From the IMG/VR virus record IMGVR_UViG_2721755711_000001: DNA of 46,733 nt; one strand, written 5' to 3'. A program made the position numbers and the translations under genes. The notes beneath the pieces were generated by a model, which worked only from the letters and a program-made list of their open reading frames with translations, was not told the origin of the DNA and did not search any database. This stretch comes from a virus (Duplodnaviria > Heunggongvirae > Uroviricota > Caudoviricetes). Positions 3,116-34,875 of this stretch are shown piece after piece. Positions within the stretch are counted from its first letter, which is position 1. Each line of letters begins with the position of its first letter.

Positions 3116-5149
3116 ATGCGTATAAAAATTTTATCCATAATGGTCAGTTTATCAGTTCTGTCCTTTGTGCCTTACTTATTAGCGAAAGAGTTATCTTACG
3201 GTCAGCAAAAAATTGTGTTGTCTGATTCTATTACTCCTGGTAATGATTTTTTCCAATATGTGAACCATGACTGGATCAATAAAGTAAAGATTCCAGCAGG
3301 TATGTCTCAAATTGATTCTATCGTGGATTTAGAGTTAGACACTGAAAAGAAAATTAAAACCATTATTGAAGAACTGGAGGCGGTACCCAAAAGTAGCCTG
3401 AGTAATAATCAGAAAAATATTCTGAATTTATATTTCAGTTATATGGATGAGGCCAGTATTGAAAAGGCCGGTTTAATGCCTGTGAAAACAGATTTAATAA
3501 AAATCATGCAAGCAAAAGATCATGAAGATATTAGCCGATTAATGACATTGCCCGGTTATACATCACTAATTGCTTATTGGGTTGGTTTGGATTCAAAATC
3601 ACCGGATACTTATGTTCTGTATCTTGGCCAGGGTGAACTCGGATTACCTGATCGTAATTACTATCTTGATAATACACCACAAATGAGAGAAACCCGTAAA
3701 AATTATATCAGTTATATTGAAACTATTCTGAAATTAACAGGTGAAAAAGACGTTAAAAAAAGATCACAACAGATCTTTGACTTTGAAAAATCTATTGCTG
3801 AAGTCCAGTGGAGCCTTGAAAATTGCCGGGATACCATCAGAAACTACCACCCAATGACTCTCGCGGAAATGAAAAGTTTTACCTCTGGCTTTTCGTGGAA
3901 TAGCTTTATTCAGTACTGGGGATTAACCGACCAACAATTGGCTAAAATAGTGATTGAAAATGATACTGCTGTAGAACAAACGGTACAAATATTCGTTAAA
4001 ACATCTGTTTCTGTTTTAAAAGATTTTCTGATATTTCATTACATCAATAGCCATGCTGTTTATTTGAATAATGCACTATCTGATGCTTATTTTGATTTTT
4101 ACCAGAAAAAACTGAATGGTGTTGAGAAGCAACGTACTCGTCAGGAGCGAGCACTTCAGATTGTCAATTCACTACAGGGTGAACCACTTGGGCAGATCTA
4201 TGTAGAAAAATATTTCTATCCACAATCAAAAGAGAAAATACAGAAATTAATTAGTTATATGTTCGCAGCTTTTAATACGCGTTTGAAAGATAATGACTGG
4301 ATGGATGAAGCTACACGCAAGGAAGCACAGAAGAAACTGGCACAGTTTACAGTTAAAGTCGGTTATCCAGATAAGTGGAATGATTTCAGTACGATCAATT
4401 TGAAACCTGACACATTGATGGATAACTTTAAGCAAGTGGAAGCGTGGACTTGTCGCAACCTCATGAGCAAAATAGGTCAGTCTGTTCGTAAATGGGAATG
4501 GAACATAACGCCACAGACCGTGAATGCCTACTTCGATCCTGTGTTAAATGAAATTGTGTTTCCTGCTGCGATATTACAGGCACCATTCTTCGAGCCTAAT
4601 GTTGATCCTGCATATAACTATGGTGCGATTGGCTCAGTCATTGGTCATGAAATGGGGCATGGTTTTGATGACCAGGGGAGCCTGTATGATGGAACTGGCC
4701 GGTTACGCAACTGGTGGAGTAACAATGCTAAAGAGCATTTTAAAGAAAAAACCGCCAAATTGGTGGAGCAATATAACAACTTTGAGGTCGATGGTCAGAA
4801 CTTAAATGGCGAGTTAACACTCGGTGAAAATATTGGTGATTTAGGTGGTTTAAATATCGCACTTAGTGCCTATAAACGATTCGCCAAAGATAATTACCCG
4901 AATGGTGAGCCCCCCGTTATTGATGGCATGACAGGCTTACAGCGTTTCTTTATTTCATGGGCCAGAACGTGGCAAGAGTTATCAAATAAGGAATCCGTGC
5001 GTAATCAGATCCTGACTGATGAACACTCGCCGAATCAGTTCCGCGCTAATGGGGTTGTTCGAAATATTGATGACTGGTATACAGCTTTTGGCGTGAGTAA
5101 GGGTAATGCTCTTTATCTTGAGCCAGAGAATCGGGTGATGATTTGGTGA
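3116..5149 (+). CDS. Secreted M13-family zinc metallopeptidase (neprilysin/PepO-like)
   Basis: 677 aa; N-terminal signal peptide; HEMGHGFD (HExxH) zinc motif and GENIGDLGG motif typical of M13; gene visibly AT-rich. Confidence 0.85.
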   Translation: MRIKILSIMVSLSVLSFVPYLLAKELSYGQQKIVLSDSITPGNDFFQYVNHDWINKVKIPAGMSQIDSIVDLELDTEKKIKTIIEELEAVPKSSLSNNQKNILNLYFSYMDEASIEKAGLMPVKTDLIKIMQAKDHEDISRLMTLPGYTSLIAYWVGLDSKSPDTYVLYLGQGELGLPDRNYYLDNTPQMRETRKNYISYIETILKLTGEKDVKKRSQQIFDFEKSIAEVQWSLENCRDTIRNYHPMTLAEMKSFTSGFSWNSFIQYWGLTDQQLAKIVIENDTAVEQTVQIFVKTSVSVLKDFLIFHYINSHAVYLNNALSDAYFDFYQKKLNGVEKQRTRQERALQIVNSLQGEPLGQIYVEKYFYPQSKEKIQKLISYMFAAFNTRLKDNDWMDEATRKEAQKKLAQFTVKVGYPDKWNDFSTINLKPDTLMDNFKQVEAWTCRNLMSKIGQSVRKWEWNITPQTVNAYFDPVLNEIVFPAAILQAPFFEPNVDPAYNYGAIGSVIGHEMGHGFDDQGSLYDGTGRLRNWWSNNAKEHFKEKTAKLVEQYNNFEVDGQNLNGELTLGENIGDLGGLNIALSAYKRFAKDNYPNGEPPVIDGMTGLQRFFISWARTWQELSNKESVRNQILTDEHSPNQFRANGVVRNIDDWYTAFGVSKGNALYLEPENRVMIW

Positions 5150-7423: not shown

Positions 7424-7600
7424 TGGTTTGTTGCATCCCGATATTTTTAACTGACTGACAGCGCAATAAAGAGAATAATGATTTCTGTTAGTGTCAGTAC
7501 TGTGGCAAGGATTAAAAACAGTTTTACTCTGCTTAATTCACGGTTGCTTTTCATATAAACGGTTAGTAAAAAAACGGAAGAATTATATTCTTCTTAATAT

Positions 7601-8182
7601 TTAATGTGTCACTGGCGCTTCTGGCATACCATGAGTATTCAGATCGTGAATCATTTCATCCAGAAGGAGTTCAAGCCCTTCGCGCCCCATAGCAGAGACA
7701 ATGAAACCATTATCAGGATCTGCGATGAGCATTTTTTGATAGAGAAACAGAACTCGCCCCATGCCTTCAGCTTCACCATATTTTTCAATAAATCCCCATT
7801 CGACATGGTTTTGCAGGGCAATGCGAAGTGGTCCTGGGTATATACTCATGCAACCATGCTTCCCCTTATAAATAACTGCGCGATCTGTAGTTCCGTTATC
7901 GTTAGGGATATCAATGGTACCGTTCTTGTTTTCCTCTTCACTGATAAACGTTGCCACATACAGCCAGCGCCATTGAGCAACCTTCATATCGACTGAAAAT
8001 CTTCCCAGGAATCCGGCATCATCGGCTTCAGCAATACATTGCATGATTCTTAAGCCGTGCCAGTATGGATTGTCGTATTCACCATCATTAAGCCGCTGTA
8101 CGGCCTCAACATAATCAATGGTTGTATTGCCAATTTTTATGCCATGTGGCGTAACTTCTGGTCGGAACTCTGAATGATTCAT
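7601..8182 (-). CDS. Hypothetical protein, unknown function
   Basis: ORF 7601..8239; preferred start is the ATG of MNHSEF at 8182, preceded by GGAG; no recognisable motif. Confidence 0.5.
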   Translation of the reverse strand: MNHSEFRPEVTPHGIKIGNTTIDYVEAVQRLNDGEYDNPYWHGLRIMQCIAEADDAGFLGRFSVDMKVAQWRWLYVATFISEEENKNGTIDIPNDNGTTDRAVIYKGKHGCMSIYPGPLRIALQNHVEWGFIEKYGEAEGMGRVLFLYQKMLIADPDNGFIVSAMGREGLELLLDEMIHDLNTHGMPEAPVTH

Positions 8183-11464: not shown

Positions 11465-11776
11465 ATGCTTAACATTAGCAGCACTCAAAAATTAGTCAAC
11501 CCTTCAGATCCTGTTGGACAAATTCCGGTCGAACAGTGGTACAGAAGAACGTACGTGGTTTCAGAGTACGCCCGCACTTATACCGAGACAATTATCGGAA
11601 AGGCCAAATGCCCCTGTTCCGCAGCTGTGAATGGTGCGATGGCAATACGTAACGCCAATCCTTCGGTTTTATCCATCCGTTTTATAAGTATTGAGCAGCT
11701 TTCTCCTGAAGAAGGAGAGGCCAGCGAGCGCGCCCTTGACGCCTGGTTTGAGAAACATCCTGAGGAGATTGAATGA
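11465..11776 (+). CDS. Hypothetical phage protein
   Basis: ATG at 11465 with AAAGGA RBS; stop overlaps next gene start. Confidence 0.4.
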   Translation: MLNISSTQKLVNPSDPVGQIPVEQWYRRTYVVSEYARTYTETIIGKAKCPCSAAVNGAMAIRNANPSVLSIRFISIEQLSPEEGEASERALDAWFEKHPEEIE

Positions 11777-12483
11777 TGAACACCGCAATTTTTAACGACA
11801 AAGTATCCATGACCAGCGTTGAAATCGCAGAGCTGGTTGGAAGTCAACACGGCAATGTCAGAATATCAATAGAGCGTCTGGCAAAACGCGGGGTGATTCA
11901 ACTTCCTGCAATGCAAAAAGTTGAGAACGAACAATCATTTAGCCAAAACAAATTCACAAACGCATATATTTTCGAAGGCGAACAAGGCAAACGCGACAGC
12001 ATCATTGTCGTCGCACAACTTTGCCCGGAATTCACTGCCCGCCTGGTAGATCGTTGGCGCGAACTGGAAGAGCAGGTGCGCAAATCAATGAGCGAAATCG
12101 AAATGGTTGCCGCGATGGCTCTTGAAGCAGTTCGTCAGCAAAAACGCCTCGACAAGATGGAAGAAAAAGTTAGCCACGTTGCCGAAACTGTCGAACAAAT
12201 CAAAAGAGGCACCATACGCGATGGTTATGCAGGATACCGTCAGCTGGTGGCGAAAACAGGTATGTCAGATGCGAAATGCCGCAATCTGGTGAACGCATAT
12301 CAGATCCCTACCGACACCCATGAATTTATGACGCCGGACGGATTATTGTCTCGTCGCGCGATTGTTGCAGTAGAACCCTTCATGTTTGCTTTTCATCGCA
12401 TGATGAGTGAAGCAGAACCACGAGGTACTCGCTGGTATCACCCGAAAATGGGCCTGTTTCAGGCGCTGGGCTGGCAGGTGTAA
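11773..12483 (+). CDS. Phage antirepressor/regulatory protein (AntA/KilA-N-like N-terminal domain)
   Basis: N-terminal SVEIAELVGSQHGNVRISIERL resembles the AntA/Rha DNA-binding region. Confidence 0.5.
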   Translation: MMNTAIFNDKVSMTSVEIAELVGSQHGNVRISIERLAKRGVIQLPAMQKVENEQSFSQNKFTNAYIFEGEQGKRDSIIVVAQLCPEFTARLVDRWRELEEQVRKSMSEIEMVAAMALEAVRQQKRLDKMEEKVSHVAETVEQIKRGTIRDGYAGYRQLVAKTGMSDAKCRNLVNAYQIPTDTHEFMTPDGLLSRRAIVAVEPFMFAFHRMMSEAEPRGTRWYHPKMGLFQALGWQV

Positions 12484-12697
12484 TTATGCTCACAGGTAAC
12501 ACATGCAAGTACTCAATCGCTGGTTCCGCGATGGCAGAGGGCGTCGCGTCCACGTTATACGCTGGGAGTCTGAAACACAGCGGGTCATTTACCTGCGTGA
12601 TGGTTATTCGCATGAATGCTTCAGTCCGTTGTGGTTGTTTCGTCGTGATTTTGTGGAGTGTGAAGCGCCGCCAGAGTGACGGCGTAATGGTGGAAAC

Positions 12698-13006
12698 TTA
12701 CACGAAGCGGATCTGGAGTTTTTTTCCTGTTGCGCGGGCAAATTTTTTCAGTGTGGAAAATGATGGTCCACTGACACCTGACGCCAGATTACTTTCCATT
12801 CTGCTGATGACAGTTGCTTTGGTTCCCATACGCTCAGCGATCTCAGCCTGGGTTAAACCAGCTTCTTTACGTGCTGCCAGCATTTCATCAAGCAACGCAA
12901 ATTCGTCGGCGATGGCGTCGTATTCTGCTTTAAAAGCTGGATCCTCCATCCATTTATCAGCCATTTCATCATGTGTAATGGTTGGCGGATTACGTTTACC
13001 AGTCAT
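12698..13006 (-). CDS. higA: HigA-type antitoxin (XRE HTH)
   Basis: AGLTQAEIAERMGTKATVISRMES HTH; overlaps upstream toxin gene; toxin-first order typical of higBA. Confidence 0.8.
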   Translation of the reverse strand: MTGKRNPPTITHDEMADKWMEDPAFKAEYDAIADEFALLDEMLAARKEAGLTQAEIAERMGTKATVISRMESNLASGVSGPSFSTLKKFARATGKKLQIRFV

Positions 13007-13325
13007 GCTTTACCTCCTTCATTCTGGTTTCAGCTTTTTGGCGTTCGGCTGGTGGGGTTTTCTGGGTCTTCTTGATGAAACTATGCAGCATGATGATGCG
13101 TTTTCCTGCCAGGGTGCAGTAAAAGACGCGTGCGATGCCATCACTACCTTTAATCCGAAGCTCGAAAAGCCCGTTACCGAAAGCACTGGTATGAGGTTCT
13201 CCGAGATTGCTGCCGTATATCTTCATGCGTTCAACAAGATGCTGGTATCGGGCACGCATACTCAATGGAAGCTGGTCGACCTCCAGCCTGACCTCTTCAC
13301 TGTAGTATTCGATAGTGTAGTTCAT
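12996..13325 (-). CDS. higB: HigB/RelE-family toxin (Gp49-like killer protein)
   Basis: 109 aa; RelE/ParE-superfamily-like sequence; immediately upstream of and overlapping the XRE antitoxin. Confidence 0.75.
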   Translation of the reverse strand: MNYTIEYYSEEVRLEVDQLPLSMRARYQHLVERMKIYGSNLGEPHTSAFGNGLFELRIKGSDGIARVFYCTLAGKRIIMLHSFIKKTQKTPPAERQKAETRMKEVKHDW

Positions 13326-13439
13326 GAGTTAAAACATAACAAAATGGTTATGTTTGTACAATGTGTTGATTCCTCAATTCCGGTGTATTTTTCTGCTCAG
13401 CAAAATTATGCAAAGATGAGGGCTGCTATCGATGAAAAA
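13326..13439 (-). promoter_or_regulatory. higBA promoter/operator region with palindrome
   Basis: AACATAAC-N7-GTTATGTT inverted repeat directly upstream of higB. Confidence 0.4.
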
Positions 13440-13802
13440 TTAGCTAATCAGTTCTTTTATCCTATTTTTGATAGATTTCTCCTCATTTTTGAATCTTTTT
13501 TTGAGTTCATTAAGTTCATTATCAAGCTCAAGGTATTTTGCCTGAATACCTCGTTCTGCAATCAGATTTGTGGCATTAATGGCTTCTTGATAATCAACGT
13601 CATCTTTGTCAATGAGCTTTCCATATTTTCCAGTGATTATTGCTGCTCTATGCTTGCATATATTTCCGAAGTCAGCAGCGATACACGAACAATCTATTTT
13701 CAGTTTACCTTTGTAATCTTTGACGGTCACTTGGTGGTACGTGATCCCGTCACTACTTTTGACGAAAATTTCATAAATCATACTGAAATTTGTCCTTTTC
13801 AC
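13440..13802 (-). CDS. SWIM-type zinc-finger protein with coiled-coil tail; AT-rich moron
   Basis: CSCIAADFGNICKH fits SWIM CxCx(n)CxH; Lys/Glu-rich C-terminus; markedly AT-rich compared with flanking phage genes. Confidence 0.5.
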   Translation of the reverse strand: MKRTNFSMIYEIFVKSSDGITYHQVTVKDYKGKLKIDCSCIAADFGNICKHRAAIITGKYGKLIDKDDVDYQEAINATNLIAERGIQAKYLELDNELNELKKRFKNEEKSIKNRIKELIS

Positions 13803-14117
13803 AGTGCGTTAGGATTGTGCCCTCATCTTAAGGATATTATTGATCATGCAGATTTTCTGGGCTATGCTAAAAAAGCCCCTTATAAAACGGGGGCCGGGAT
13901 TGGAACCCCAGAATTGCATACGGCGATATTTGACGCGCCAGCGTCTTTTTTATCGTCCACGTTCACGCACGCCAGAATTATGGTGGGCTGGGCAGGGGAG
14001 CCGAAAGGCTCGCCGGTTTCCGTATGCGCCGGTAGTTCCAACCCTGTTCAGTCCGCCACCAGCGAGCTTGGAACCTCCGGTGGTGGAAGTTATCCATTGC
14101 ATACGGAGGCTGCCATC

Positions 14118-14681
14118 ATGGCTACGATCCCAACCCTCACTCAACCTGAAATTGCCATCGTTGATGGTCAGGTTGTTACATCTTCTTTGGCTGTTGCTGA
14201 CTTCTTCTCTAAACGTCATGACGATGTTCTGAAAAAGATCCGCATTTTGGATTGTTCTCCAGAGTTTTGTGCCCGCAATTTTGCGGAGACATCAATTTTG
14301 GTACACCAGCCCAACGGCGGTACTCGCAAACTTCCTTGCTACCACATCACCCGCGACGGCTTCGCGTTCCTGGCAATGGGCTTCACGGGCAAACGTGCAG
14401 CCAGGTTCAAAGAGGCATACATCAACGCCTTTAACCTGATGGAGAAGAGTTTATCAGGTGCCGATGCGTCTGATATGTCAGCTGTCGCACGAAACGCCAG
14501 AGGCGTATACCTGCATTTGCGTGAAATCCATCAAATCTGGACAAGCCAGCTTTATCCAATGCTTAAGGCCGTTGAATCTCCGCTGGCTAGCAAACTGTAC
14601 GACCGTGTTGGTGATGCTGTTTTTGGGGCCGCACTTGTTGACTCCAGACTTAATGGTTCTGACAAGGAGGCGCACCCATGA
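14118..14681 (+). CDS. Phage regulatory protein Rha-family
   Basis: ATG at 14118 with GGAGG RBS; Rha-like features (SSLAVADFFSKRHDDVLKKIR, YHITRDGFAFLAMGFTG); real gene is the 3' part of a spurious 731-aa ORF. Confidence 0.65.
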   Translation: MATIPTLTQPEIAIVDGQVVTSSLAVADFFSKRHDDVLKKIRILDCSPEFCARNFAETSILVHQPNGGTRKLPCYHITRDGFAFLAMGFTGKRAARFKEAYINAFNLMEKSLSGADASDMSAVARNARGVYLHLREIHQIWTSQLYPMLKAVESPLASKLYDRVGDAVFGAALVDSRLNGSDKEAHP

Positions 14682-18979: not shown

Positions 18980-20086
18980 TTAGAACTGGTATACCATACC
19001 TACAGCAACGATATCGTCAGTGTTTACACCAAGAGCTTTAGTAAAGTCATTTTTGTCAAGCAGGTTGATTTTGTAATCAACGAATGTAGACATATTTTTG
19101 TTGAAATAATAAGTTGCGCCAACATCAACATATTTGACTAAATCTTGGTCACCAAAAATGCCAAGATCTTTACCTTTTGATTGCAGATAAGCAACAGACG
19201 GACGCAGACCGAAATCGAACTGATATTGTGCAACAGCTTCGAAGTTTTGTGCTTTATTAGCCACAAAGTAATCTGCGAATTTAGTCATATTCTGGGTTTC
19301 TGAATAGGTTGTTGCCAGATAAACGTTGTTTGCGTCGTATTTCAGACCTGCAGCCCAGACTTCTGCATTTTCGCCGGAAGCAAATACTCCTGGGAGAAGT
19401 TTACCCAATTTGACTTGAGTGTCGGTACGATCAGATTTCGCATACGTTGCACCAATGCCGAAACCTTCGTATTCATAGGTCGCAGAGAAACCAAAACCAT
19501 CGCCATTGCCTTTGGTGTAGTTATCTAAGCTACTACGATCATGATTATTCTTACCCTGGTACTGTGCAGCAAAATTCAGACCATCAACCAGACCAAAGAA
19601 GTCGTTGTTACGATAAGTTGCAACACCAGTGGTGCGACCAGTCATGAATACATCTGTTTGGGTCCAGGTATCTCCACCGAATTCTGGCAGAACGTCAGTC
19701 CATGCACCGATATCGTATGCTACACCGTAGTTACGACCGTAATCGACGGAGCCGTAGTCACCGAATTTAAGCCCTGCAAATGCAAGACGGGTTTTATCTT
19801 TGGCTGCTCCCTGTTCTTCAGTACGGTTTCCTTTGAATTCATATTCCCACTGACCGAAACCAGTCAGTTGATCGTTGATCTGAGTTTCGCCTTTGAAACC
19901 CAGACGAGCATAAGTTGTGTCGCCATCATTTGCATCGTTAGAGGAGAAGTAGTGCTTAGCATTAACTTTTCCGTACAGATCCAACTTGTTGCTGTCTTTA
20001 TTATAAATCTCTGCTGCCTGAGCAGACATCGCCATCAGTACTGATGCAGCCACAGCAGAAATTGCCACCGTTAATTTTTTCATCAC
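18980..20086 (-). CDS. General porin, OmpC/OmpF/NmpC family (prophage-borne)
   Basis: Signal peptide ending AQA; conserved porin motifs ([23 protein letters not shown]) and C-terminal MVYQF. Confidence 0.85.
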
Positions 20087-22206: not shown

Positions 22207-22281
22207 GCGGGTATCGTATAATGGCTATTACCTCAGCTTTCCAGGCTGATGATGCGGGTTCGATTCCCGCCACCCGCTCTC
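22207..22281 (+). tRNA. tRNA-Gly (anticodon UCC), left-arm copy, slightly degenerate
   Basis: Cloverleaf readable by eye: acceptor GCGGGTA, T-arm GCGGG-TTCGATT-CCCGC, anticodon loop TTTCCAG; A7-C66 mismatch; 3' end reads CTC, not CCA. Confidence 0.55.
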
Positions 22282-23166: not shown

Positions 23167-23241
<75 letters not shown>

Positions 23242-23244
23242 ATA

Positions 23245-23320
<76 letters not shown>

Positions 23321-28400: not shown

Positions 28401-28742
28401 TCCAAGCCTATCTCTTATTTTAAGATACATCCACTGTCTGGCGTTTCAAGGGGCCGATTCAATTCTTTGCGCTACCACAGTTTTTTATGTAAGTATGGAT
28501 GAAGGGAAAAGAAAGGAAAAACATTTTGTTTTTTGTGATTGTTGTTACATAATAAATAAAAAACAATTGATTATATTGCTGTATTGTGCTGTAAATAAGT
28601 GCTTCACTTTGTCTGGTACTGATTTATTCCCGGGGGTGGAGGGGCATGGCAGATGAAGGGAGGGATGAATCGGGACTTTTTGTTTAATTCGTTGACAGCA
28701 ACAGTCATAAGAGAAAGCAACAATTCACATATGGAGCAGTTT

Positions 28743-29438
28743 ATGAAAACTATCTTCATAGCAGAGCCTGTCGTGACGGCGGGTAACAGTAACAGGCTGA
28801 TTGCGGTGGAAATTCTGAGCCGATTTTATTCTGTTAATGGAAAACAACTTCCTACCGTGAAAACGCTGAATATGTTTACAGCAGAGATGAAAATTGATTT
28901 GCTGGAATTACAGATAAGAAAAATAATAAGTAAAGCTTCTTTTTTTAGCAAGCATAATATACTGTGTTCTCTTAACGTCGATTATGATACATGTCAGTAT
29001 ATATACAGAAATAAAAACATTCAGGATATAATAAAGTCATATGATTTTATTGTTCTTGAGATTTCTGAAACATATCCGGTCATAAAGGCTGATGATGCAA
29101 TAATTCCTTTTCTCATTAATTTGTCAGAACATATCTGGCTGGATGATTTAGGGAGTGGTAACAGTACAATACATACATTGATAAGAAATAAATTCCAGGC
29201 AGTGAAACTTGACAAAAGTTTTTTTCAAAAACACAGTATGAAACCGCATTTTTCTGCATTAATAGACAATATAAAAAGATTTTGCCCTCTGGTTATTGCC
29301 GAGGGTGTTGAAAATAAGGATTATCTGCATGCTGCTTCAGGAACTGGTTTATGGGGGGTTCAGGGATATTATTTTCCATCAGTACAGCTTGAGGATATTC
29401 ATCAGATAAAGTTGGATTTTTCTGAGATCATCAGCTGA
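28743..29438 (+). CDS. Degenerate EAL-domain protein, YdiV-like (probably catalytically inactive)
   Basis: EAL-domain landmarks present but altered (EISE for EAL, DDLGSGNST, VIAEGVE, QGYYF); AT-rich; start at ATG 28743 with GGAG RBS. Confidence 0.65.
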   Translation: MKTIFIAEPVVTAGNSNRLIAVEILSRFYSVNGKQLPTVKTLNMFTAEMKIDLLELQIRKIISKASFFSKHNILCSLNVDYDTCQYIYRNKNIQDIIKSYDFIVLEISETYPVIKADDAIIPFLINLSEHIWLDDLGSGNSTIHTLIRNKFQAVKLDKSFFQKHSMKPHFSALIDNIKRFCPLVIAEGVENKDYLHAASGTGLWGVQGYYFPSVQLEDIHQIKLDFSEIIS

Positions 29439-30582
29439 TGAGTCTGTCATACTCTTTCTTCCCTGACATATCTGGGCAGTGTTTAAGCATAATAGTCATA
29501 AGAAAACTGGTTATTATATTTTCCGAGGTGGAATTCAGAACAGGTTTCCCTTTTCGAGCTCAAGCTGTTAATTCTTTGGGAAGAGCTCCGGATGCGTAAC
29601 GTATTTCCAGCTCTCCCGTAAAATACCATCCTAGTAACATAGTAAAGGTTCAGACAAATCACATCTGTGTATTGATGAGCACAACATTTACCATAGAAGG
29701 CCAGCATTACATTGACAAACGTCAGTGGTCTGTTCTGTGGATCCTGGTTCCGGGCATATCCAAATACCTGACGGAAATATTTTTCCTGTGGTCGGGTTAA
29801 TCTGTTAGTACCAGTGATATATAAGACGGTCAAAGATCGTGGTGTTGACACGACATTAGATTATCAGGCAGTTCACAATTTCATGGAACCATGTAAATGG
29901 ATTGTCACGCTATCGGGTCAGGAAGGGCAGGAACAATTAGTATCTGTACAGTAATTACAAAAGTGTCTTCATGCCGACTAAAAAGTTTCCTTTCTTTTTC
30001 CATGCAATTAGCGTGATGTTTACATGAAAAAGTGTTGGTAATTAATGAATAAGTATTTTCAGGATAATCAGTATCTCTGAAACGAAATTCACCTGTTTAC
30101 ATGTGAACAAAAAAGCAACTCATAATATTACTGTCTTTTGTTTTTCCATTTTTTGATATACTTGTTTTTGATTTTTGTCTAATTTTTGCTTTTTTGTTTG
30201 TACGGTTAAAAATGCTGCTTAATGCAAATTAAACGATCTTTTTATTTGTTATTTTGCTGCCTATTGGAGTTATTTTTTGTGTTTTTTGTGCTTTTTGGTT
30301 TGTTTGTCTTTATTGTGTCGTTTTTGCAGATAAAAAGATCGTTTTTTGTTATTTACTGGGATAAAGTATCTATATATCCTGTGTGCGAATTTTATTCTTT
30401 CTCTGTTTTATGGTTAAGGAGAAGATGTGCAAAAAAAGTAAAAGAGAAGGATGTTTTAATACCAGGAAAGGTATTTGAGTTTGTTTTTCCGTTGTTAATG
30501 GAGTTGTCTTCGGTTCGTAGTGAGAGGGTTATTTATGCGCTCAGGGATTTTCTGGTCTGGGGATATACAAGGTGTGAAAGGT

Positions 30583-31635
30583 ATGTGGTGTGAGAAAATA
30601 ATTTATCTTTTTGTTTTTATATCAGGTTGTTCATTTGCATATGAACCTTGTCGTGATATGCAAATATTGTGGCAGTTAGATGGTAACAATGTTACTATTC
30701 CGGATGTAACAATTTCCTCAGGAAACACAGCAAGTTATTTTGATATTGTATTGCCCGGTCTGGCACCAAGAACGTCTGCAGTTGTTAGCTGGGTCCAGCG
30801 TCATAATGTGCCTGTTAGCTCGCCGGTTAAGATTCTTTCGGGTAAAGGCTCAAAGAGTCAGGCAACATGGATTGCGATGCCAGTTGATAGTAATAACATA
30901 CGATTGGGTAATGGTCTGAAAGGGAGTATTCAGATTATTTCCGGGGGGTATAATAAACGTGGTATTTATAATGGTTATCAGACTTACGTTGGTGTTTATG
31001 ATAACTATGATTGGTATGACAGACCATTCCCAGAAGGAGAAATTGTCCCGGGATACAGATATCCTCTGGTATATAACAACTTTCAGAGTACCAAATTGAG
31101 GGTAACGATAGAGAGGGGCAGTGCTTTAGCCGGAATATATGATTTAAACATTCCGCTAAAAATAGGATCTGAGGAATGGTATAAGGGGGAAAAATATTGT
31201 TCTGATGGTGGGGGTGTTGAGTCTGCAGTAGTTAATATGGAGAACAGATATGCCCCTGTAAGAGTGAATGTTCTGGCATCCTGTAATATAGCAGGGAATA
31301 AAGATATATCAATAAATCATAATGCAATAACATCAGCCCAGGCTCGTGATGGACACTTTGCTAAGGCCGGATTAGTGATTAATTGCAGTTCACCAACCAG
31401 AGTAGATATAACCATTAAAGGTAGTAATCTAATATCAGGGGAAGGGGGGAATGTAACTCGATGTGGAGATAATGGAAAGTGCACATTGACTGTTGATGGT
31501 GCGAAGGAATTTTCGGGGGTTATCAGTGGAAGTAGAACATTTGATATAACGTCACAATATAGGGTTATAGATACAAACAGAATTGATGCTGGATCGTTTT
31601 CTGGCAGTGCGATAGCTACCGTATTGATGCAGTAA
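30583..31635 (+). CDS. Putative surface lipoprotein, Gly/Asn/Ser-rich, unknown function
   Basis: Signal peptide with lipobox FISGC; start at MWCEK within ORF 30520..31635; AT-rich. Confidence 0.45.
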   Translation: MWCEKIIYLFVFISGCSFAYEPCRDMQILWQLDGNNVTIPDVTISSGNTASYFDIVLPGLAPRTSAVVSWVQRHNVPVSSPVKILSGKGSKSQATWIAMPVDSNNIRLGNGLKGSIQIISGGYNKRGIYNGYQTYVGVYDNYDWYDRPFPEGEIVPGYRYPLVYNNFQSTKLRVTIERGSALAGIYDLNIPLKIGSEEWYKGEKYCSDGGGVESAVVNMENRYAPVRVNVLASCNIAGNKDISINHNAITSAQARDGHFAKAGLVINCSSPTRVDITIKGSNLISGEGGNVTRCGDNGKCTLTVDGAKEFSGVISGSRTFDITSQYRVIDTNRIDAGSFSGSAIATVLMQ

Positions 31636-31959: not shown

Positions 31960-32980
31960 TGTGTGATTCATAGACATCGTTTCACTATAATGCCTTACTA
32001 TGAACAGGGAAATTCAGCAGCGGCTACAGTGGGTAAAACTCTATGAAACGTCTGGTGACGCGGGGTTCGTATGCCGTCGCTGCGGTATTTCCCGCCCCAC
32101 ATTGCGTAAATGGTGGCGCAGATATCTGGCTCAGGGCATCGCTGGTCTGGAAAGCCACAGCCGTCGCCCTAAGCGTTCGCCATCAACGAAAACCGGCACT
32201 TGCGAAGTCGCTCTGATTCTGGAGTTACGTTCCCAGCGAAATCTGGGTGCAAGACGGATTCAAAGCGAGTTAAAACGACTTCATTCAATCTCACTTGCAA
32301 TGGCAACAATCCACAAAGTTCTTTGCCAGAATCAGGTTAAACCTGTTGTTAAACTCCGGCGTAAAGCTGATTTCATTCGCTACGAACGCCCTGTTCCCGG
32401 TGATTGGGTTCAGATGGATACCTGTAAAATTGGCCCCGGCTTATATCAGTACACATCTGTTGATGATTGCACTCGCTACAGAGTTCTGAGGCTCTATTCC
32501 CGTCGCACGACTACAAACACACTGGATTTCATTGATTGTTTTATTGAAGAAATGCCGTTCCCGATTCAGCGCTTTCAGACAGACCGGGGAAGAGAGTTTT
32601 TTGCCGTTAAGGTGCAGGAAAGACTGAAAGAATACGGCATCAAGTTTCGTCCAAATAAACCAGCATCACCCCATCTTAATGGCAAAGTTGAACGCTCCCA
32701 AAAGACAGACAAAGCTGAGTTTTACGCTACCGTAGATATCGCTACTGATAACTTGGAGGAGCGACTGGCAGAATGGCAGCATTACTATAACTGGGAACGT
32801 CCTCATTGCGCTCACAACGGTAAAACGCCGATGGAGCGCTACTTTGAACTTGCTGAGAAAACGCCATACTCGGATGCCGTTCACGCAAGCTATCAGCCCA
32901 ATGAGGAGCATATTCAGGAACAGAATTACAAGCTTGAACTTGAGCTGAGGAAATTGAAACGATGTCTATGAATCACACAC
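31960..32980 (+). mobile_element. IS481-family insertion sequence, apparently intact, inserted into the IS2 remnant
   Basis: Terminal inverted repeats TGTGTGATTCATAGACATCGTTTC (31960-31983) and GAAACGATGTCTATGAATCACACA (32956-32979) flank one transposase ORF. Confidence 0.7.
32000..32971 (+). CDS. IS481-family DDE transposase (N-terminal HTH plus integrase core)
   Basis: 323 aa; HTH (CGISRPTLRKWWRRY) and rve-type core; ORF ends inside the right inverted repeat. Confidence 0.75.
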   Translation: MNREIQQRLQWVKLYETSGDAGFVCRRCGISRPTLRKWWRRYLAQGIAGLESHSRRPKRSPSTKTGTCEVALILELRSQRNLGARRIQSELKRLHSISLAMATIHKVLCQNQVKPVVKLRRKADFIRYERPVPGDWVQMDTCKIGPGLYQYTSVDDCTRYRVLRLYSRRTTTNTLDFIDCFIEEMPFPIQRFQTDRGREFFAVKVQERLKEYGIKFRPNKPASPHLNGKVERSQKTDKAEFYATVDIATDNLEERLAEWQHYYNWERPHCAHNGKTPMERYFELAEKTPYSDAVHASYQPNEEHIQEQNYKLELELRKLKRCL

Positions 32981-34599: not shown

Positions 34600-34680
34600 C
34601 TGCTCCGCTGTTAATAGAATAAAACGATCGATAAAACAGGTATCGATCGTTGGTATCGATCGTTTATGGTGGTTAATGGC
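34600..34680 (+). promoter_or_regulatory. Ag43 phase-variation switch: three Dam GATC sites (expected OxyR-binding region)
   Basis: GATC at 34626, 34645 and 34658 in AACGATCGATAAAACAGGTATCGATCGTTGGTATCGATCG, upstream of the Ag43 start. Confidence 0.7.
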
Positions 34681-34875
34681 CTGCGAAAAGGCAGCTGAAT
34701 CTCTTCATCATGCAGAACGGAATTGCACACAACGGACTGAAACTTCTCTGCCTGATGAAGGGTGAGAGCGTTTACGCCCGGGGCGTATCGCTCTGCCCGA
34801 TAACTCTGTTTTGTACCTGCCGGTATCCACTTTTGTGGATACCGGCTTTTTTTATTCACCCTCTGTAAGGAAAAG

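Follow-up and report, generated by a model that had tools for sequence, protein, structure and literature searches.

Characterised SWIM zinc-finger domains are modules within large proteins, such as relatives of the MuDR and FAR1 transposases, bacterial SNF2 ATPases, MEKK1 and ZSWIM8. Phage morons that are expressed in the lysogen include lambda rexAB (which occupies the position directly behind cI), sieB and the lom/bor-type morons. Among toxin-antitoxin (TA) systems, toxins with a Gp49 domain are classed as the HigB family and always occur in toxin-first operons (PMC5906591), and a three-component system, paaR2-paaA2-parE2, has been described for prophage CP-933P of E. coli O157 (PMC8630535). 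In the isrK-orf45-anrP module of the Gifsy-1 prophage, the stop codon of orf45 shares nucleotides with the start codon of anrP (PMC4825925). Here we analyse a stretch of 46,733 nucleotides from a virus of the Caudoviricetes (IMG/VR record IMGVR_UViG_2721755711_000001; hereafter the window), in which a small SWIM gene lies beside a higBA pair. Together they form a minus-strand trio of higA, higB and the SWIM gene, inserted backwards in the early-right operon of a lambdoid prophage (Table 1).

We find that this interval is made up of two accessory cassettes that are independent of each other and stand side by side in a single variable slot, which runs from the DUF4222 gene to the IsrK-orf45/C4-Rha module. 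For the SWIM protein we prefer the reading, at a probability of roughly 0.55, that it is a lysogen-expressed, stoichiometric zinc-finger binder which would act in exclusion or anti-phage protection or would modulate a host or phage regulator.

Profile, alignment and structure prediction confirm that the gene encodes a genuine SWIM-type zinc-finger protein, for which zinc binding is predicted. The product matches Pfam PF04434 with E=3.6e-6 and 26.8-27.0 bits (gathering score 19.6) over profile positions 1-34 of 38, and its ligand pattern, C-x-C-x8-C-x-H, fits the CxC...CxH finger that a preliminary description of this DNA had proposed. An alignment of 50 homologues shows no change at C31, C33, C42 and H44 and hardly any at Y16 and A35; the zinc ligands stay invariant across 25-50% identity, and 30 of the 50 aligned members match PF04434 individually (E<=0.01). 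The protein also matches PHROG 13130 (E=3e-12), an uncharacterised family of stand-alone proteins of about 110-120 amino acids (aa) that is matched by every SWIM subfamily tested. In an exhaustive phmmer search of 1.84 billion representatives, 110 cluster representatives were found at E<=1e-3, nearly all of them 107-125 aa long and matched over their full length; two giant matches (P0004 and P0005) were discarded as low-complexity eukaryotic repeat proteins.

The AlphaFold2 model built from the 50-sequence alignment is of high confidence, with a predicted local distance difference test (pLDDT) score of 97.1 and a predicted TM score of 0.83. Its SWIM half has strands at residues 2-8, 15-23 and 26-31 and short helices at 34-37 and 43-50 around the ligands. 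The C-terminal half consists of two helices (62-76 and 79-112) with a conserved Lys-rich face, and 13 of the last 35 residues are Lys or Glu, in agreement with the Lys/Glu-rich tail noted earlier. The protein has a mass of 13 kDa and a pI of 8.4. Among the structural matches to the SWIM core in BFVD the best are small phage proteins labelled SWIM-type, all weak. No solved structural homologue of the whole fold was present in the libraries searched, and a profile search of the family against PDB sequences gave compositional coiled-coil matches only. Pfam, NCBIfam and PADLOC recognised no catalytic motif, NCBIfam returned nothing specific, and longer members of the family carry no informative additional Pfam domain.

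As the start codon we favour ATG 13781 (113 aa) over GTG 13802 (120 aa), because the 99%-identical NCBI cluster (P0001, named 'SWIM zinc finger family protein') is 113 aa long and relatives start at the equivalent codon after a strong AAGGAG. Substitutions between relatives pile up at codon position 3 (6/6/41, 1/0/12 and 8/2/22 for positions 1/2/3), which points to purifying selection on this frame. This bears on the suspicion that the SWIM frame is a chance or shadow open reading frame (ORF) and that the true gene is the long ORF on the other strand. Indeed a 731-aa ORF (12486-14681) covers the SWIM ORF there, and in RM8082 the Rha gene called by the Prokaryotic Genome Annotation Pipeline (PGAP) has been extended over part of the SWIM homologue. 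Nonetheless, selection acts in the SWIM frame, the ligands are invariant among distant homologues, the predicted model is confident, and homologues without an antisense ORF exist (loci L004, L005, L021 and L022); the antisense translations match nothing in Pfam and have a high content of Ser, Leu, Phe and Cys. Given the invariant ligands and the position-3 substitutions we reject this explanation, which we consider hardly credible.

The SWIM gene is best supported as a separately acquired moron, to judge from a clean indel of about 490 bp. Homology to prophages with higBA only (L010 and L011, from E. coli STEC299 and A8) breaks off at 13383 and returns at 13875-13895. Across 13384-13874 the windowed GC content is 0.34-0.38, against 0.47-0.53 in the flanks; the SWIM ORF has 0.348 and the spacer between SWIM and higB 0.342, compared with 0.485 for higB, 0.463 for higA and a window mean of 0.469. 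The compositional contrast suggested in the preliminary description therefore holds, to a moderate degree, for the SWIM ORF and its flanks, but not for higBA, which is at the window mean. About 5% of all 342-nt windows match the SWIM ORF in AT-richness, and the low GC content is specific to the present allele (relatives have 0.41-0.46). The separate acquisition that had been proposed from composition is thus borne out by a discrete indel, and the slot itself is found in four states: empty (Stx1a phages, FRIK1989), with higBA only (STEC299, A8), with SWIM only (RM8082, L015 and others) and with both (the window). In terms of the Hendrix-type definition of a moron, the gene is present or absent between otherwise syntenic phages and deviates in base composition.

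Does the SWIM gene belong to the neighbouring TA module, as the preliminary description had considered possible? We recovered 36 loci by SWIM homology (from genomes, IMG/VR, metagenomes and assemblies) and searched them for HigB and HigA with tblastn. HigB/HigA were found beside SWIM only where the SWIM protein is at least 99% identical (L002, L003, L013, L025 and L026), and at none of the 18 loci with a 45-51%-identical SWIM protein and none of the 11 loci at 25-41%. Conversely, E. coli STEC299, E. coli A8 and Shigella phage POCJ13 have higBA with the same operator but without SWIM. Within the 45-51% group, wherever the downstream flank can be read, the stop codon of SWIM usually lies 30-60 nt from the convergent DUF4222 gene, which leaves no space for another gene; at RM8082-type loci DUF4222 is missing downstream of SWIM. 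As far as these distributions tell, the SWIM protein appears to be neither a component nor a regulator of higBA: none of the 29 more distant SWIM loci carries higBA and higBA occurs without SWIM, so the proposed regulation of the TA module is not supported.

The alternative would be a third higBA component (a regulator, chaperone or sensor), as in paaR2-paaA2-parE2 or toxin-antitoxin-chaperone (TAC) systems. The SWIM gene does share its strand with higB, from which it lies 114 nt upstream, and no terminator is recognisable in the gap, so that read-through co-transcription is possible in the present prophage. Against this, co-occurrence is confined to near-identical copies of one prophage, outside these copies each of the two was found without the other, the higBA promoter and operator lie within 58 nt shared with SWIM-less prophages, and the cassettes are unlike in GC content (0.35 against 0.47-0.49). 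The distribution largely refutes a third component, and we hold it to be very improbable. Adjacency to a TA pair is here not the same as functional partnership; the slot is filled in a mix-and-match manner.

The higBA cassette itself is, on its sequence features, an autonomous HigBA-type type II TA pair with predicted toxicity. The identification of a higB-higA pair is upheld by the Pfam matches of both products (Table 1), by their matches to the HigB and HigA chains of the S. pneumoniae HigBA complex 6AF3 (E=1.6e-5 and 8.6e-5) and by the toxin-first order, higB preceding higA with an overlap of 11 nt. The palindromic operator described earlier is present and conserved, though with a spacer of 6 nt instead of 7. 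A palindrome of such size occurs in 0.8% of shuffles of the 114-nt SWIM-higB spacer; its arms are kept, with a variable spacer, in L010/L011 and in POCJ13, even though the remaining higBA upstream region of POCJ13 is unrelated. Presumably higBA is autorepressed at this site by HigA or the HigBA complex. The predicted promoter, whose spacer and -10 element are filled by the palindrome, lies within the 58 nt mentioned above. It scores below the threshold of a generic promoter scan, but TTGnnn-17-TATGTT is found at the equal position in four higBA loci, including the diverged POCJ13, and we infer that the transcript would be leaderless or nearly so. The sole sigma-70-like consensus match in the region (TCGATA-16-CATAAT, 13405-13432, minus strand) falls within the 3' flank of the SWIM cassette, is directed at higB and could provide a second higBA transcript with a longer leader, in the present prophage only.

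Members of the SWIM family are scattered over lambdoid, P2-like, Mu-like and P4-like elements, where they take accessory positions, and over some chromosomal sites, which is the distribution of mobile accessory cargo without an obligate partner. Neither the whole interval nor the present SWIM allele occurs in 5426 complete E. coli genomes, where a 66%-identical relative is found twice; a tblastn search of 50,697 phage records and 72,556 plasmids gave no match, and a narrow SWIM alignment recovered a single locus, in Phytobacter, from the genome collection. In most lambdoid relatives the SWIM gene adjoins the DUF4222 gene. On its other side, in 17 of the 18 lambdoid-type relatives, plus the copies of the present prophage itself, it is positioned directly upstream of, and divergent from, either the isrK-C4-Rha module (the window, L001, L015-19 and L027-29) or a RepO-like gene (L006-9, L012, L014, L020 and L030-31), at a distance of 107-336 nt. 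The exception, L003, is a near-identical copy whose contig ends ahead of the neighbour.

More distant homologues are found elsewhere. In L022 the SWIM gene follows a lambda-cI-like repressor gene (HTH_3 plus Peptidase_S24) at a distance of 10 nt and in the same orientation; in L005 it is found between the lysis genes and gpD of a P2-like prophage and is followed by a secreted-looking 146-aa ORF; and in L021 it is divergent from an sRNA-Xcc1 element and an ORF6N antirepressor-like gene. P4-like islands (L023 and L032-36), with integrase, AlpA, AntA, Icd-like and primase-helicase genes, have it between the AntA-like gene and the Icd-like/primase operon. There it is always preceded by a small ORF (PHROG 949, with a weak DUF3950 match), and no C4 or isrK RNA was found beside SWIM in these islands; the L034-type island is absent from the complete E. 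coli genomes. This small-protein-first cassette of two genes recalls a TA or regulator-effector pair, and the lambdoid copies have no such partner. At the chromosomal-looking site L004 a 176-aa ORF (7474-8004) shares 4 nt with the beginning of a distant SWIM homologue, and the same protein is fused to a SWIM domain in the 268-aa P0046; it may be a possible partner for one SWIM subfamily and has no homologue in the window.

Against this background the preferred role can be set out as follows. The zinc-stabilised SWIM module would bind a target, either a protein or a nucleic acid, and the helical tail would serve for self-association or as a second point of contact; the protein would be expressed from the prophage in the lysogen, where it may serve lysogenic conversion (superinfection exclusion or another anti-phage function) or modulate a host or phage regulator. 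A stoichiometric action seems most likely because there is neither a catalytic domain nor an obligate partner gene, and expression in the lysogen is probable because the gene points against the lytic operon and the L022 homologue lies behind, and co-oriented with, a cI-like gene.

Several observations weigh against this assignment. A consensus scan of the SWIM gene found no convincing sigma-70 promoter and no terminator, and the argument for expression in the lysogen consists of the orientation and one homologue. A search of PADLOC-DB 2.0 gave just an 18-bit local match of 33 residues, on the SWIM motif, to the 566-position candidate PDC-S62, so that no known defence family backs a defence role. 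Moreover, the divergent position upstream of an antirepressor or replication gene in the relatives fits a regulatory role equally well. The literature on small phage SWIM proteins yielded nothing relevant.

It might accordingly be argued that SWIM regulates the neighbouring early genes (IsrK-orf45-Rha or the replication module), by binding DNA, RNA or a protein of these modules from its divergent position, and in this way tunes prophage induction or immunity. The nearly constant divergent arrangement in lambdoid relatives would fit, as would the arrangements in L021 and in the P4-like islands, and the -35 region of isrK overlaps a conserved AATAAT on the SWIM strand. However, about 800 of the 5426 E. 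coli genomes have the isrK-C4 module without any SWIM gene, the right-hand neighbour varies among relatives (Rha or RepO), distant homologues lie behind cI, between lysis and tail genes or at chromosomal sites, and a pI of 8.4 is no strong signal of nucleic-acid binding. We therefore regard such a regulator as rather unlikely. A similarly low likelihood is given to an anti-defence factor, a small protein that would inhibit a host immune system stoichiometrically and with which the phage would protect itself. Genes that are small, rare, patchy and non-enzymatic and sit in a variable slot have the typical anti-defence profile, and the SWIM gene resembles them in each of these respects and has no partner gene. 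Its orientation opposes the early lytic operon, though, with one homologue co-oriented behind cI; the family is also found at an apparently chromosomal, non-phage site (L004), and our literature search tied no known anti-defence family to stand-alone SWIM proteins. Returning to the lysogen-expressed binder, the family (PHROG 13130) combines a small size and a confident predicted fold with a distribution like that of lysogenic-conversion or immunity genes, which makes it a promising candidate for a novel factor of phage-host interaction.

To the right of the SWIM gene both Rfam matches, to isrK and to C4, lie in front of the Rha gene (Table 1). The isrK-type small RNA (sRNA) has a terminator-like site at 13932-13945, and its upstream -35 and -10 elements are conserved in L001 and L015. 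The orf45-like ORF (ATG 13980) has no stop before Rha, giving an in-frame fusion (13980-14681, plus strand); a similar orf45-like fusion has been noted for S. dysenteriae (PMC4825925). Translated in the Rha frame, 13863-14150 (plus strand) matches the Pfam family Phage_ASH ('Ash protein family', PF10554) with E=3.8e-16, and the DNA of isrK and C4 is thus claimed by both Rfam and Pfam. In hundreds of E. coli genomes PGAP labels this place 'ash family protein' or a 300-340-aa 'Rha family phage regulatory protein', and such long Rha annotations can overlap SWIM or higB genes. This leaves two readings of Ash, as a leader that is translated or as a protein family that was defined on RNA genes. When the slot was surveyed across E. 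coli, most of what came back was the isrK/C4 segment, and no additional antisense cargo came to light.

The operon strand opposite the trio contains a long stop-free frame, which runs antisense through all three genes and passes into Rha without a change of frame. Over 12680-14117 the other two plus-strand frames have 19 and 33 stops, and from base composition alone the probability of an open frame is about 2e-11. Both higB and SWIM are read codon for codon in this antisense frame, and of the 57 proxy genes in the window these two alone lack TTA, CTA and TCA codons. By synonymous resampling the probability of an open frame is 0.07 for SWIM (0.011 with low-GC usage), 0.047 for higB (0.006) and 0.59 for higA, and for the three spacers it is 0.73, 0.064 and 0.062. 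In the control, a porin moron encoded on the minus strand at 18980-20086, the antisense frame is not open. The composition, the avoided codons and the stops in the other frames lead us to reject chance as the cause of the stop-free frame, and a shadow-ORF artefact was likewise excluded.

Similar frames are found in related loci, ranging from 160 to 756 codons. Prophages with higBA only have 620 stop-free codons in L010 (2348-4210) and 594 in L011 (2512-4296), and POCJ13 has a 242-codon frame that just spans higBA. All 11 distinct lambdoid-type SWIM genes have zero stops in the aligned antisense frame, with some 40 position-3 differences between sublineages, and the P4-like islands have 282-685 stop-free codons (in a different relative frame) versus 12-40 stops in the other frames. 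The ends of the frames often overlap neighbouring operon genes: in L012 the frame begins 11 nt ahead of the DUF4222 stop and closes with a TGA that overlaps the TTG with which the RepO-like gene starts (ATTGA), in L034/L035 it begins with an ATGA overlap on the AntA stop, and in the window an in-frame ATG is found 8 nt past the DUF4222 stop. The distance from SWIM to Rha is 330, 333 or 336 nt, depending on the lineage, and always a multiple of three. The antisense amino-acid sequence is conserved no further than the SWIM frame imposes. In RM8082-type prophages (L028 5330-5606, minus strand, and equivalently L001), the frame starts upstream of the SWIM cassette in an apparent C-terminal remnant of a second Rha gene (…LYDRINDAAALAGLINSLLNSSAIRGR), which has lost its own stop and reads on into the SWIM antisense.

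A tentative explanation, which we think possible but would not yet bet on, is that the opposite-strand cassettes are nested in a 'bridge' frame of the early-operon strand that is predicted to be translated while its amino-acid sequence is unconstrained. Selection would then keep the plus-strand frame free of stops, leaving higB and SWIM without TTA, CTA and TCA codons; ribosomes would travel from DUF4222 or AntA across 0.5-2 kb of antisense cargo and would arrive at the early gene that follows, either in the same frame (orf45-Rha, Icd-like) or through a stop-start overlap (ATTGA in L012, ATGA after AntA), so that coupling or protection from Rho would be preserved for the downstream antirepressor and replication genes. 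Translation for coupling and against polarity has been demonstrated for orf45-anrP at the same locus (PMC4825925). If the frame is translated, translation for its own sake (coupling, prevention of polarity) is favoured, though not certain. Phages and satellites would thereby have a general means of accommodating reversed morons in coupled operons, and translation of the frame would bear on how the 'Ash' and long 'Rha' annotations relate to the IsrK and C4 RNAs. As described, the interval holds a domain-annotated moron beside a standard TA pair, and the stop-free operon frame is the part possibly worth further work.

Table 1. Positions of the features discussed. Coordinates refer to the window, except those preceded by an L number, which refer to the locus of that number.
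Feature	Position	Strand	Remarks
Rha-N/Ant-like gene	11773-12483	+	PHROG 63; left of the DUF4222 gene
DUF4222 early-operon gene, 58 aa	12503-12679	+	Pfam PF13973 E=2.1e-15; conserved left border of the variable slot
higA-like HTH-XRE antitoxin, 102 aa	12698-13006	-	Pfam HTH_3 E=2.7e-11
higB-like toxin (Gp49/RelE-ParE superfamily), 109 aa	12996-13325	-	Pfam PF05973 E=2e-25
Operator-like palindrome	13332-13355		AAACATAAC-N6-GTTATGTTT; perfect 9-nt arms; ends 7 nt before the higB ATG
Predicted higBA promoter	13333-13361	-	TTGTAC-17 nt-TATGTT
SWIM cassette	13384-13874		Low-GC block; indel versus prophages with higBA only
SWIM zinc-finger gene, 113 aa	13440-13781 (ORF 13440-13802)	-	Pfam SWIM PF04434; PHROG 13130
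isrK-type sRNA with terminator	13875-13951	+	Rfam RF01394, 57.9 bits (gathering score 50); divergent from the SWIM gene
C4-type antisense RNA element	13976-14063	+	Rfam RF01695, 82.9 bits; overlaps the orf45-like leader ORF
Rha-family (AnrP-like) antirepressor/regulator	14118-14681	+	Pfam Phage_pRha E=3.1e-26; PHROG 821 E=2e-102; right border of the slot
Stop-free frame, 756 codons stop to stop	12411-14681	+	Antisense through higA, higB, SWIM, spacers and isrK/C4; in frame into Rha
Stop-free frame in relatives	L012 5890-6381, L023 5268-6968, L033 4334-5983, L034 4658-6199, L036 4421-6475	-	
Small ORF before SWIM in P4-like islands	L023 5761-5964, L032 40-222, L033 4650-4958		Same strand as SWIM
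Small ORF before SWIM in P4-like islands	L034 4743-4958, L035 774-1079, L036 4650-4958		Same strand as SWIM

The preliminary description had placed higBA and SWIM opposite to the early operon, with SWIM upstream on the higBA strand, and this arrangement was found at the coordinates it gave. Of the flanking genes it named, the Rha-like gene on the right was recovered, whereas the left side is occupied not by AntA but by the DUF4222 gene and then a Rha-N/Ant-like gene. Right of Rha a RepO-like gene follows, and then DnaC-like and DnaB-like genes.

Other cargo is present in the window as well. The control porin is a full-length Gram-negative porin gene (Porin_1, E=8e-152) in the replication/nin-side region and represents a classical lambdoid porin moron. 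Low-GC cargo is located at 1062-1637, 3116-5149, 28653-29438, 30222-30593 and 32000-32971; the types include an Ail/Lom outer-membrane protein, an M13 peptidase (677 aa, GC content 0.38), an EAL-domain protein, a PapB-type regulator and an insertion-sequence (rve) transposase. Three tRNA genes (22207-22279, plus strand; 23169-23241 and 23245-23320, minus strand) comprise two Gly-TCC on opposite strands and one Thr-TGT, and an IS102 sRNA family match is found at 34624-34860 (plus strand).

Compared with described systems, the higBA pair agrees with S. pneumoniae HigBA (6AF3), A. baumannii HigBA and M. tuberculosis HigBA2/3 in its toxin-first order, overlapping genes, PF05973 toxin, HTH-XRE antitoxin and promoter palindrome. 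It differs from the solved S. pneumoniae pair in its distant similarity (E about 1e-5) and its predicted leaderless transcript, and from known HigBA in being a mobile cassette in the early and nin regions of lambdoid prophages. As in paaR2-paaA2-parE2 and TAC systems, a small third gene lies on the same strand beside a prophage TA pair, but SWIM does not covary with that pair and lies outside the conserved TA promoter region. In the right-hand module the order of isrK with its terminator, the C4-type element and orf45-like leader, and the Rha/antirepressor gene is that of Gifsy-1 IsrK-orf45-AnrP and P1 immI (c4-icd-ant), although, unlike in Gifsy-1, the orf45-like ORF is here fused in frame to Rha.

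The SWIM gene itself resembles rexAB, sieB and the lom/bor-type morons in being present or absent in syntenic phages, in its deviant composition, in its orientation against the lytic operon and in having one relative behind cI; its product differs from theirs in having neither membrane segments nor recognised exclusion domains. With the known SWIM domains (PF04434) it shares the CxC-x(n)-CxH ligands and the predicted strands followed by a helix around them, whereas, unlike the characterised ones, it is a stand-alone protein of 113 aa with a dedicated two-helix tail.

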